The position numbers and the translations under genes are program-made. 64,000 bases of DNA from a virus. Below, one piece after another: positions 27,815-39,535 of the stretch. Position 1 is the stretch's first letter. Each line of letters starts with the position of its first letter. The stretch lies in IMG/VR virus record IMGVR_UViG_3300042905_004067; one strand, given 5' to 3'. Under the pieces are notes generated by a model. It saw nothing but the letters and a program-made list of their open reading frames with translations, was not told the DNA's origin and made no database searches.

Positions 27815-28115
27815 AATAAATCCGGTTTTTCAGATGCGGGAAAACCGGGAAACCCCACTGCTTCAAGCAGCCATTGCCAGTTCGTTGGCAATTATATTTG
27901 CAACTGTTTATTTACGACACTTGTTACCCGTGTCGGGTATCTCCTTCTTTCATACTCTGCTCCAGTCGATGCCATTCAGCCCCTTAAATGCCCCGCTGCA
28001 ACGAGGACTTGTTTCGCCATCCCTAAAGTTTGCAGAGGCTTTAGGTTAGGCTAATGGAGCCGAGGGGATTCGAACCCCTGTGCTGTTAGCATTTCTGTCC
28101 GAGATCAACAATACC
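27815..28115 (-). ncRNA. ssrA: Permuted (two-piece) tmRNA, tag ANIIANELAMAA
   Basis: Acceptor piece ..CAGGGGTTCGAATCCCCTCGGCTCCA (ends 28055) precedes the 5' piece GGGGCTGAATGGCATCGAC (starts 27983); G3-U70; PK1 ACCCGACACGGGT..GTGTC; tag ORF 27901-27863; terminator hairpin follows. Confidence 0.88.
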
Positions 28116-34687: not shown

Positions 34688-35689
34688 TTACCACCCACGA
34701 TTAAAACTCACTTCTTCTCTATTTCCAGAGAATGATATGTTTGCATTTAAGAACTCTAATGTATTTGAAATAAATTCAGTCATTTTAAGCAAACTACTAA
34801 ATTGATGTAGAAACCCTTTGTAGTATACTTTGAATACGCCAACTGTTTCTAAAACATCACACTTATTTATGATGAGATAATCACAACCAGAAAGTTGCAT
34901 TGATTCAATCAACTTATCAAGATTTAACCAATTTACTAGTCTCTTACGGCCGGTTGTGGAACCGTATTCTTGGCCAAGTTCAATGATTCGATTTAGTGTT
35001 TCATCCTCCCATAAAGTTTCAGGGAACAGTGGATCTACACCACTTTTCGTATCGTAGATTTTAGCAACACCAATACTACGACCAATGTACTTTGGAGGAA
35101 TACCAAGAGAACATGCTCCGTATGGTAAAGTAGTACTACTCGTCACAAATGGATAGTTTCCATGATCAATATCAAGCCACACACTTTGTGCTCCTTCACA
35201 TAAAACTGCACCAGAAAGATGTCCATCCCAGATATACTGAGCATCTAGAACATCTTTTGCTTGTGTACCACAACGAAGCATCTTATCGGCATAGCATGGA
35301 GCAATTCCTTGTCCTGTAGTTCCAAACTTCTTTTTTAATTCTTTCATGTCTCGTTCAATATGCTCATCTGTGATGATATGAGCATGAGGAGAAACTTTTA
35401 CAAGAGAGACATCAAAACCATTTTGCTCCAAGTAAGAAATTTCTTGTAAAAACTTATTTACATGAAGAACACATCCAGGACCAATAATTGATTTTTTACC
35501 TTTAAAAATTCCACAAGGAACACTGTGTGTTTTATACTTTTTGTCTTTGATGTAAACGGTATGTCCCGCATTTGGACCACCATTCCATCGACAAACATAA
35601 TCGTATTCGTGCGCGATTGCATTAGAAATTTTTCCTTTGCCTTCGTCGCCCCATGCGAGTCCATAAATTACGTCTGCATAATCAATCAT
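34688..35689 (-). CDS. purA: Adenylosuccinate synthetase (short form)
   Basis: WGDEGKGK, GGPNAGHT, GTTGQGIAPCYADK, EGAQ, YPFVTSS, EYGSTTGRKR. Confidence 0.95.
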   Translation of the reverse strand: MIDYADVIYGLAWGDEGKGKISNAIAHEYDYVCRWNGGPNAGHTVYIKDKKYKTHSVPCGIFKGKKSIIGPGCVLHVNKFLQEISYLEQNGFDVSLVKVSPHAHIITDEHIERDMKELKKKFGTTGQGIAPCYADKMLRCGTQAKDVLDAQYIWDGHLSGAVLCEGAQSVWLDIDHGNYPFVTSSTTLPYGACSLGIPPKYIGRSIGVAKIYDTKSGVDPLFPETLWEDETLNRIIELGQEYGSTTGRKRLVNWLNLDKLIESMQLSGCDYLIINKCDVLETVGVFKVYYKGFLHQFSSLLKMTEFISNTLEFLNANISFSGNREEVSFNRGW

Positions 35690-37335: not shown

Positions 37336-37363
37336 ATTATATCGCTCAATTTTTTTATGTCAA
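37336..37363 (-). promoter_or_regulatory. sigma70-like promoter TTGACA-N16-TATAAT
   Basis: Upstream of tRNA-Lys/Glu. Confidence 0.75.
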
Positions 37364-37435
37364 TCTATTTTTTACTTCTTTTAGTATTTTTTGAGTAATT
37401 GTTTATGACGCTTCTTCATAACAATATGTAAAAAT

Positions 37436-37590
37436 AAAAAAACCCAACCATTACTGGCTGGGGAGTCGTTTACCATGACTCTTTGGGGAGGCGTCGATTC
37501 TCCTTACGACGAGAGTTTTATTTTCGATGCATATCAGATTACTCTAAACTGTATGCATCCACTGCGTTTAAGGAGTGCAGGCTCCTTATA
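37436..37590 (-). ncRNA. Putative multi-pseudoknot ncRNA
   Basis: Five consecutive helices, three loop-downstream complementarities, terminator with U-run. Confidence 0.6.
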
Positions 37591-37646
37591 ATATAATAAT
37601 ATACTGTGTCATAGAGTTAAATACATGGTAATTTCCATTCATCTAA

Positions 37647-37730
37647 TGGGATAGATGGGAATCGAACCCATATGCCCTTGCGGGCGGCAGATTTTGAGTC
37701 TGCTGCGTCTGCCTGTTCCGCCACATTCCC
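37647..37730 (-). tRNA. tRNA-Leu(CAA)
   Basis: GCAGA-CTCAAAA-TCTGC, long variable arm; two acceptor-stem mismatches. Confidence 0.85.
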
Positions 37731-37737
37731 GTTTCTG

Positions 37738-38313
37738 TTATGCTGGTATTGTAACAGGTATTTGTAAACCGTCAAGATACCATTTTGGTATTTTTCCATC
37801 TGGCCACTTTGCAAAACGGCTTTTTTCATTAACATAATATGCTCTATATGCCTCTACCGCATTTTCTTTTTTATATTGATCTGGCATGGCTTGTGCAAAA
37901 GGAGGAAGATCTGCCGTAATTGGAATTGTTTTTGGTTTATGAATTAAAGAGTGTTGAACCAACGAATCATACGCATGAACTTTATTATATCGAACTTCAT
38001 AAACTTTTAGCATTTCTTTCACATGAGACCATAACCAACTATATGCTAAGTTAGAAGAGCGAGTCCAAATTGTACATGGATGATTTACCATAGTGCAACG
38101 AAGAAGAGGAGGAAAAAAGAAATCCTTTCTAGTGGTTTCATAGGTAGAAAACTTACGTCCATTTTTTCCTGTACGAGTAATCTGAATACCATCAAGAACG
38201 TGATGTGCTGTTGATAATAATTGACAAGATTCAACAATCATCTTTACGACATGCTTGTTGCACATATCCCACGCGGCTTGCGCGGGATCTTCATCTAATA
38301 CAAAAATATTCAT
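37738..38313 (-). CDS. Pyrimidine dimer DNA glycosylase family protein (DenV-like)
   Basis: [51 protein letters not shown]. Confidence 0.8.
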   Translation of the reverse strand: MNIFVLDEDPAQAAWDMCNKHVVKMIVESCQLLSTAHHVLDGIQITRTGKNGRKFSTYETTRKDFFFPPLLRCTMVNHPCTIWTRSSNLAYSWLWSHVKEMLKVYEVRYNKVHAYDSLVQHSLIHKPKTIPITADLPPFAQAMPDQYKKENAVEAYRAYYVNEKSRFAKWPDGKIPKWYLDGLQIPVTIPA

Positions 38314-38474
38314 CTTCCTAGTTTTTGCTTAACAATTTTTGGCAAACAACCTTCTCGTTCAAGTCGATCAAGTGTCTTTTTGCTTGCATTTAGTAGCAAT
38401 AGTTGATCACGACGCTTTCGAAGTTTGCGGCGACGACTAATTCTAAGTTTGTTTTTCTTATCAGTGCTGTTCAT
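38310..38474 (-). CDS. 54-aa highly basic protein ([22 protein letters not shown]...)
   Basis: Hand-translated; ATGA overlaps with both neighbours. Confidence 0.55.
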
Positions 38475-39535
38475 AATGAATCTCCATAAACTGTATTGAG
38501 TTGACGATTAACACGAATGAATGTACAACATTTTGGTAAATCTTTCAAGTGTCTTGCACCAACATAAGTGCAAGCAGATCGAACACCACCCAAAATTTGT
38601 TGAATAGTTTCTTTTACCGGACCTTTTGCATCCAAGTATACCGTTTTACCTTCTGCCGCTCTATATTGTGCGACTCCACCAAAATGTTTATCCATACAAC
38701 TTTTTGATGACATTCCATAAAATGGAATTTTAATATTTCCATTTTCATCTTGTAGTGAATTCATTTCAGACTCGTCATGCCCTGCCAACATACCACCTAG
38801 CATAACAAAGTCTGCTCCACCACCAAATGCTTTTGCAACATCTCCGGGTATCGTACAACCACCGTCTGCAAGAACGTGTGCGCGAAGCCCATGTGCTGCA
38901 TCGGCACATTCAATAATGGCAGACAGTTGAGGATAACCGACGCCAGCAACTTTTCTAGTAGTACAAACACTTCCAGAACCAATACCAACCTTTACTATGT
39001 CTGCTCCTGCAAGAACTAGTGCTTCTGTCATTTCAGGAGTTACAACATTTCCTGCAATAATGATTTTATTTGGGAATAATTGCCGAATGCGTTTTACATA
39101 ATCAACAAATTTTTCTGTATATCCATTTGCGACATCAATGCAAATGAATTTTACGTTGGTACATATTTTTAAAATATCTGTTGCTTTTGAGATTTCTTGA
39201 TATGGATCATGTGTCATACCAAGAGTATAAACTAAATTCTCACAATGTAGATAGCCATTTACTAATGAATTTTCGTAATTAGTAATCCACTCCTGAACCG
39301 AATAGAATTTATTAATACCACATAGCATATAGTATGGCTCTAGACTTTTTGCCATACTAAAAGTACCAACACCTTCCATATTTGAAGCAATGATTGGTAC
39401 TCCTTCCCACGTTAATCCACTTGGGAATTTAAAATTCCTGTTTAGTTCTACTTGCTTTCTACTAACAAGTGTGCTGCGTTTTGGGCGAATTAAAACATCA
39501 CTAAAATCTAACTTAATGTCATTTTCAATTTTCAT
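38471..39535 (-). CDS. guaC: GMP reductase
   Basis: [48 protein letters not shown]. Confidence 0.95.

Follow-up and report, generated by a model that had tools for sequence, protein, structure and literature searches.

A candidate non-coding RNA built of three tandem pseudoknots precedes tRNA-Lys in uncultured freshwater T4-like phages

A viral contig from IMG/VR (record IMGVR_UViG_3300042905_004067; the whole 64,000-nt stretch analysed is referred to as the window) carries, as judged from its sequence and that of its relatives, a real gene for a compact non-coding RNA on its minus strand. The core of this RNA spans approximately 105 nt and is made up of three consecutive pseudoknots, and its total length ranges from 105 to 155 nt across versions. 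We recovered about 18 distinct versions, which fall into two subfamilies, from uncultured viral and freshwater metagenome contigs (the freshwater origin of the related contigs was judged from sample identifiers); in all of them the same gene for a 191-aa protein lies upstream and a tRNA-Lys gene lies downstream. The group that carries the element consists of uncultured freshwater T4-like phages in which the RNA stands at the head of the tRNA cluster. Comparison of the versions indicates that conservation applies to the fold, to the A-rich loops that connect its helices and to the placement ahead of tRNA-Lys, and that all three pseudoknots are supported by compensatory changes.

The initial annotation, made from the letters of the window alone, had described three hairpins whose loops pair with downstream tracts, a fourth hairpin and a terminator, and every helix it listed is present on the minus strand (Table 1). 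Other parts of that description need adjusting. Nearly every base was said to lie in a helix, and the proportion inside the proposed helices is about 64%. The element is richer in GC than the AT-rich spacer downstream (0.39 versus 0.29), as had been stated of its flanks in general, but it does not exceed the phage average or the tRNAs. Likewise, both copies of TAAGGAG had been considered sequestered, whereas the second copy sits in a loop and is only partly so. No ORF of at least 40 codons crosses the element on either strand. Because UAA triplets occur in all of its frames, and because the loops of the different versions contain frame-breaking indels, a coding role is excluded. Hairpin E, with eight pairs (five of them G-C), a 4-nt loop and a run of seven U, has the make-up of an intrinsic terminator. 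The knots belong to the H-type class, in that a hairpin loop pairs outside the hairpin and both helices are kept, with a non-classical geometry at PK-C. By standard pseudoknot geometry, a 1-nt linker such as that of PK-C, which is present in both subfamilies, should make it impossible to cross 5 bp in a classical coaxial H-type knot; we infer that the helices of stem C and PK-C pack side by side, or that they alternate. Candidate PK-D is probably a fourth small pseudoknot in the window phage.

Table 1. Predicted features of the RNA element and its surroundings (window coordinates)
Feature	Position	Strand	Remarks
RNA element with three tandem pseudoknots, hairpin D and terminator	37588-37436	-	Helices read from sequence
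Stem A	37588-37582 with 37575-37569	-	Helix present
PK-A	Loop 37580-37577 with 37565-37562	-	Module A, 37562..37588
Stem B	37559-37549 with 37537-37526	-	One bulged A; module B, 37512..37559
PK-B	Loop 37545-37542 with 37515-37512	-	Module B also holds an A-rich linker
Stem C	37511-37507 with 37496-37492	-	10-nt loop; module C, 37487..37511
PK-C	Loop 37503-37500 with 37490-37487	-	1 nt between stem C and the 3' strand of the knot
Hairpin D	37481-37477 with 37467-37463	-	5 bp; region 37463..37486
Candidate PK-D	37486-37484 with D loop 37475-37473	-	3 bp; suggested by RNAalifold and covariation
Hairpin E (37462-37443) and U run, intrinsic terminator	37436..37462	-	Gives the 3' end of the RNA in the window
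Sigma-70-type promoter	37748..37775	-	10/12 matches, TG-extended; at 3' end of upstream 191-aa gene
tRNA-Leu(CAA)	37647..37730	-	Just upstream of the RNA
SD-like GGAA (37636-37633) and 5-codon mini-ORF	37609..37636	-	ATG at 37626, TGA ending at 37609; Tyr is codon 2
Weak promoter-like site	37593..37620	-	9/12 matches; directly before stem A
12-codon remnant of 580-aa J-domain protein gene	37381..37419	-	Full gene in six related versions
Consensus promoter	37363-37336	-	12/12 matches; precedes tRNA-Lys/tRNA-Glu
tRNA-Lys(UUU)	37314-37242	-	tRNA array always preceded by the RNA
tRNA-Glu(UUC)	37230-37156	-	Same array, after tRNA-Lys

The nested part of the fold alone is unusually stable: its minimum free energy is -48.7 kcal/mol versus -33.0 +/- 3.7 kcal/mol for shuffled sequences (z = -4.24), and none of 200 shuffles was as stable. 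The nested fold of L044, a member of the second subfamily (related contigs and loci are designated here by L numbers), is no better than its shuffles (z = -0.76), which is expected if much of the stability resides in the knots. Loop pairings of 4 bp are not significant in any single sequence. A descriptor combining stem B, PK-B, stem C and PK-C, run over approximately 1 Mb of related DNA, returned family members only, and nothing in the shuffled copies. RNAalifold, which cannot draw knots, selected the helices of PK-A and of PK-C unaided. The same program proposed a long-range 5-bp helix joining 37510-37506 to 37469-37465 on the minus strand, which is pairable in all 13 versions of the main family and is mutually exclusive with stem C and hairpin D; this alternative shows one-sided changes only and none on both sides, so that a conformational switch, though possible, has no support. 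Inspection by eye of different partners for the CUCU tract and the hairpin D loop led to their rejection, as the proposed partners vary while the tracts are invariant. Dimer prediction was uninformative because stem B is self-complementary.

Homologs were reached through the neighboring protein and through pattern scans. A search with the 191-aa sequence led to four viral contigs with the element at the same place, and pattern scans of viral and metagenome contigs raised the main family to 13 distinct versions; throughout this family the upstream protein is 47–84% identical and tRNA-Lys followed by tRNA-Glu lies downstream. What separates the RNA from tRNA-Lys differs. A terminator and a promoter intervene in three versions (the window, L019 and L022). 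In L001, L002, L009, L023, L025 and L026, the space is occupied by a 1.7-kb gene for a 580-aa protein (L001:4818-6560) that has a C-terminal J domain with an HPD motif; only a 12-codon remnant of it is found in the window, and the J-domain gene has therefore been lost from the window phage. In L013 and L030, 5–6 nt lie between hairpin E and tRNA-Lys, and the hairpin is kept while its U run is absent. An alignment-based search with the neighboring protein added 80 loci at 38–56% identity, one of which, L044, was matched weakly by the family model (23.5 bits). The second subfamily, assembled by reading L044 and the related L043 and by one last pattern scan, comprises five distinct versions that have the same three modules without hairpins D and E and that end 4–5 nt before a single tRNA-Lys. 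The minimal form is thus three pseudoknots placed 4–5 nt 5' of a lone tRNA-Lys. The complete unit in L044 consists of a promoter, the RNA, one tRNA-Lys and a terminator-like hairpin (noted by eye, and in L044 only), and L043, as far as its sequence could be read, likewise shows a promoter, the RNA and one tRNA-Lys. In L043 and L119, the position that the mini-ORF occupies elsewhere, downstream of the consensus promoter and ahead of the RNA, is taken by a terminator-like hairpin with a U run (L043:3575-3600, approximate).

The distribution of the RNA follows that of tRNA-Lys. Approximately 75 related loci lack the RNA, and none of them has tRNA-Lys downstream; related phages without the RNA include L004-L008, L010-L012 and Caulobacter phage Cr30. 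The family is narrow. Searches of a known-phage collection at near and distant sensitivity matched tRNAs only, and no match came from 185,579 genomes of bacteria and archaea scanned with the pattern. Two further hits of the pattern scans, L020 and L124, were set aside as chance matches.

The core of the RNA is retained whatever follows it, be it a terminator and promoter, the 1.7-kb gene, or tRNA-Lys directly (L013, L030, L043 and L044). A stretch of 36 nt is identical in the 12 full-length versions of the main family, while the identity of the neighboring protein falls to 47%; the partial version L021 has one difference within this stretch, which gives a U-G pair in stem C. The invariant stretch is longer than any invariant run in the adjacent tRNA-Lys. 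This invariance is partly circular, since portions of the core were held constant in the scan patterns; every portion was nonetheless unconstrained in one or more scans, and the U-G variant was the only one that emerged. Many unpaired bases are also invariant, including those of the A-rich connecting loops. As a separate observation, the version at L026:3522-3697 combines a 5' half like that of L013 with a 3' half, comprising hairpins D and E, like that of L009, which suggests recombination within the RNA gene between related phages.

Covariation also supports the fold. Over the 13 versions of the main family, 91% of the cells at the proposed pairs are paired, versus 35–44% after sliding of the partners, and both-sided changes are seen at 19 pairs. 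PK-A is 100% paired in this family, with three pairs changing on both sides; one lineage carries a single compensatory change, and another has exchanged the whole hairpin while still forming a stem and a knot, the latter of 6 bp. Within the second subfamily, L044 and L122 differ by a further compensatory change in PK-A (A-U to U-A), so that several independent changes back this knot. Both-sided changes in the main family further affect seven pairs of stem B, two of hairpin D and six of hairpin E. The variable pair of PK-D is A-U in seven versions and U-A in six and is always paired; the second subfamily lacks PK-D. PK-B, stem C and PK-C are invariant among the 13 versions, except for the U-G pair of L021. 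When the second subfamily was added in a plain MAFFT alignment, these three helices remained 100% paired, and L044 and L122 showed both-sided changes in 2/4 pairs of PK-B, 2/5 of stem C and 2/4 of PK-C, all six being compensatory, versus no both-sided change in the slid controls. The covariation in PK-B and PK-C comes from a single divergent lineage and amounts in effect to one evolutionary event. Since L044 was found through its sequence and nested structure and not through its knots, the knots in L044 constitute an independent test. In L043 and L119, PK-B is kept and PK-C has two possible registers of 3–4 bp. The G-U pairs are compatible with the minus strand only, which indicates that the RNA is read from that strand. 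Homologs and covariation had been proposed as a check when the RNA was initially annotated; with about 18 versions in hand and compensatory changes in each of the three pseudoknots, the annotation of an RNA of this form within the tRNA cluster has been borne out, and we regard the fold, and selection on the fold, as demonstrated at the level of compared sequences.

Among the products encoded in the window are nine tRNAs, a circularly permuted, two-piece tmRNA and a gp6-like baseplate wedge protein (phrog_219); the structural protein is less than 30% identical to the counterparts in cyanophages and other distant T4-like phages. For the related contigs, CheckV implied genome sizes from about 50 kb to several hundred kb, mostly about 160–350 kb. 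The permuted tmRNA (27863-28115, minus strand) matched the full model with 73 bits. Permuted tmRNAs were also found in L081 and L109, and L046 has a standard one-piece tmRNA; the tags of all three end in ALAA, an ending that we take to resemble alphaproteobacterial tmRNA tags, and by this analogy an alphaproteobacterial host is inferred. The 191-aa gene upstream of the element (37738-38313, minus strand) matches Pfam Pyr_excise (pyrimidine dimer glycosylase of the T4 endonuclease V type) and is labelled 'DNA binding protein' in other phage records; among named phages its product is closest to that of a Caulobacter phage Cr30 gene, with 42% identity. A scan of nine neighboring ORFs gave matches that included a Pyr_excise-like protein, IMPDH/GMP reductase, adenylosuccinate synthetase and a wHTH domain. 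The tRNA region is flanked by an adenylosuccinate-synthetase-like gene (34688-35689, minus strand), whose PHROG family bears the name of a PurZ-type enzyme, and by a GMP-reductase/IMPDH-like gene (38471-39535, minus strand). These two would be phage genes for purine rerouting, and the first may be a PurA or a PurZ.

Upstream of the RNA, the predicted promoter at 37775-37748 probably starts one transcript that comprises tRNA-Leu, the mini-ORF and the RNA; a similar pair of hexamers was seen by eye at the same place in L009, L019, L043 and L044. The weak site at 37593..37620 could be a start of the RNA's own, or it could be spurious in AT-rich DNA. The position of tRNA-Leu is not fixed, as in other versions it follows tRNA-Glu/Gln instead. 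Seven lineages (the window, L001, L002, L009, L019, L022 and L044) have an SD-like tract followed by a frame of 2–7 codons that always includes Tyr, located 48–73 nt before stem A and predicted to encode MY, MIY, MNY, MYHL, MYLTL or MNIYMNF; the mini-ORF is absent from L043 and L119. Insertions of whole codons and a TAT/TAC difference fit a coding constraint on this frame. In form, it is similar to the lambda bar minigenes.

Comparison with known RNA families yielded no relative by sequence. At gathering thresholds, Rfam 15 matched tRNAs and the permuted tmRNA elsewhere in the window and nothing at the element, in agreement with the initial annotation of an unannotated RNA, and sensitive Rfam scans of 37350-37700 and of L044 returned noise (at most 18 bits versus cut-offs of 50–80 bits). 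A set of 8,495 unnamed structured-RNA candidates has been drawn from IMG/VR, among which a piece of the window RNA may be included (PMC10690425). Our best reading is that the family, having no Rfam match, is a new phage RNA, possibly with a prior listing among those unnamed candidates. The RNAs closest in setting are RNAC and RNAD of T4, which were sequenced in the 1970s and are likewise small stable RNAs that lie in a T4-type tRNA cluster and are co-oriented with the tRNAs. They come from the tRNA region of the phage, and their role is still unknown (PMC3014915; PMC9697503). Homology to them was rejected: with filters off, the family model reached at most 12.2 bits in the T4 tRNA region, and most of this match falls beyond rnaC on its downstream side, the score being due to a terminator-like hairpin. 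Moreover, RNAC has a T-arm-like segment that the window RNA lacks, and a string of pseudoknots is not described for RNAC or RNAD. GOLLD, ROOL and manA are also structured non-coding RNAs that recur in the tRNA arrays of phages and prophages; GOLLD and ROOL have been reported in such arrays, and GOLLD, like the present family, is variable toward its 5' end and conserved toward its 3' end (PMC12990946). In contrast to the window family, with its 105–155 nt, GOLLD, ROOL and manA measure about 400–800 nt, have many junctions and form RNA-only cages, and the window RNA fits none of their Rfam models. A target site for RegB/S1 was considered as well, taking as its marks an exposed GGAG followed by an A-rich tract, in a phage that has its own regB; in the main family only, the motif matches over its initial 7 nt, it is lost in L044, and regB was found neither in the window nor in four related contigs (all incomplete genomes), while the T4 control was detected. 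The site was rejected on these grounds.

What the RNA does can be addressed by its arrangement and pattern of conservation. We tentatively favor, at rather less than even confidence, a stably folded, shape-specific RNA that is made with the tRNAs and acts separately in trans. It would be transcribed together with the phage tRNAs from the sigma-70-type promoter at the end of the upstream gene and released as a separate stable molecule, in the window presumably by its own terminator and by cutting of tRNA-Leu, and in relatives that abut tRNA-Lys presumably by RNase P cleavage. Its shape would be a rod or bundle of stacked helices joined by the invariant A-rich connecting loops, and it may bind, or serve as a decoy for, a protein or RNP of the tRNA or translation machinery that is relevant to the supply of phage tRNA-Lys. 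The nuclease decoy put forward in the initial annotation is likewise conceivable. A separately acting RNA is favored by the fact that the core is kept both in versions that are physically joined to the tRNA transcript and in those that are not.

A role in cis ranks close behind the reading in trans, although on its own we hold it to be rather doubtful. The RNA would in this case be a leader of the tRNA-Lys unit that guides or times RNase P or RNase E, shields the precursor, or alters read-through by RNA polymerase. Its constant place before the tRNA-Lys unit suits such a role no less well: every version lies upstream of tRNA-Lys in the same orientation, the two co-occur perfectly, the RNA ends only 4–6 nt before the tRNA in the minimal subfamily and in L013 and L030, and in L044 (and in L043 as read) the unit runs from a promoter through the RNA to one tRNA-Lys. 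The put RNA of phage HK022 makes RNA polymerase read through terminators, and the order of promoter, RNA, terminator and downstream genes resembles antitermination of the put type, which also counts in favor of a leader. Against it stand the strong terminator and the separate 12/12 promoter between the RNA and tRNA-Lys in the window, as well as the 1.7-kb protein gene that intervenes in six versions. As the core is unchanged despite these intervening elements, linkage to the tRNA is not needed for selection on the core.

It is also conceivable, and in our judgment unlikely, that the RNA is a sensor or attenuator which, together with the Tyr mini-ORF, senses a small molecule, translation or tRNA supply and controls read-through at hairpin E, and with it transcription of the tRNA array or the J-domain gene. 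The order of a folded domain, an intrinsic terminator and an ORF in six versions counts toward such a role, and in the other versions a tRNA or promoter takes the place of the ORF. The SD and mini-ORF with its invariant Tyr codon in seven lineages, the alternative helix that excludes stem C and hairpin D and can always be paired, and the many invariant unpaired bases, which recall an aptamer, point the same way. Nevertheless, the minimal subfamily has no terminator and neither hairpin D nor hairpin E, and the U run is missing from L013 and L030. The stop codon of the mini-ORF lies 20–50 nt from stem A, beyond the reach of a ribosome, and two versions (L043 and L119) do without the mini-ORF; no riboswitch family was matched, and the alternative helix is without both-sided changes.

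The mini-ORF and the knots may be seen together in yet another manner. By analogy, the SD and Tyr mini-ORF, the three pseudoknots and tRNA-Lys could form one unit that is like tmRNA in its build, organized around a complete tRNA, and that would couple the translation of Tyr codons, or the state of a tRNA attacked by a host defence, to the supply, protection or delivery of tRNA-Lys; we consider this to be quite improbable. The string PK2-PK4 of tmRNA likewise consists of three consecutive small pseudoknots directly 5' of a tRNA-type structure, and a short reading frame precedes the window-type knots in seven lineages, a likeness of order only. The differences are that the present element adjoins a complete tRNA-Lys with an anticodon instead of a split alanine-accepting domain, and that the mini-ORF of the window has an SD and AUG of its own, so that the likeness is architectural only. 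ARAGORN found no tmRNA at the locus, and the best match to a tmRNA model there scored 10.8 bits and fell on the T arm of tRNA-Leu. A comparable architecture occurs in the 3' UTR of tobacco mosaic virus, where a stack of three pseudoknots directly precedes an element shaped like a tRNA; that element belongs to a plant (eukaryotic) RNA virus, is located at the 3' end of an mRNA and binds eEF1A. The two were compared by description only and are unrelated in sequence.

The initial annotation had suggested a ribosome-binding RNA, which could act through SD-like motifs. In such a reading, a loop would mimic the SD and bind the 3' end of 16S rRNA, or the RNA would be a base-pairing sRNA whose C-rich strand targets ribosome-binding sites. 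In the main family, the hairpin C loop contains a 7-nt match to a perfect SD and is followed by a CCUCC tract, GGAGAAU also serves three phage genes of the window as their ribosome-binding site, and the A-rich linker and U tail resemble those of Hfq-binding sRNAs. The second subfamily has GCGG with CCGC in place of GGAG with CUCC, a pair that is no longer SD-like and has kept its mutual pairing; this concerted change indicates that the constraint is on intramolecular pairing and not on SD identity. The first SD-like arm also varies among versions, and taken together with the exchange it implies that resemblance to an SD is not the conserved feature. The suggestion is thereby weakened, and we rate a role of this kind as very unlikely.

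Least probable of all, and scarcely to be expected, is that the RNA is a pseudoknot antitoxin mimic of the ToxI type, as was also proposed at the outset, or a decoy for a host defence protein that is guided or inhibited by RNA: ToxI and other type III antitoxin RNAs are likewise small, pseudoknotted and involved in phage-host conflict, and phage tRNA sets for Lys, Glu, Gln, Asn, Tyr and Arg are often linked to anticodon-nuclease defences, but being pseudoknot-rich and phage-borne are general points only, and the three modules are unlike each other in sequence and length, tandem repeats of 34–45 nt are absent (Tandem Repeats Finder reported only an 8-nt AT repeat upstream of the RNA), no ToxI or antitoxin RNA family was matched, the nine nearby ORFs scanned contain no toxin family such as ToxN/AbiQ, and no hairpin loop resembles an anticodon loop.

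Structured RNAs inside the tRNA arrays of large phages have had obscure roles ever since RNAC and RNAD of T4. The present family offers a tractable case, with a minimal form of 105 nt, a fold defined by covariation and a tight tie to tRNA-Lys(UUU). Its three to four very compact pseudoknots in a row, one of which has an unusual 1-nt linker, are also of interest for RNA structure. If the RNA proves to bind a host factor or a defence nuclease, it would represent an RNA-based layer in the control of translation by phages; if the mini-ORF, the knots and the tRNA act as a unit, it would constitute a new translation-linked RNA device that is related to tmRNA in form.
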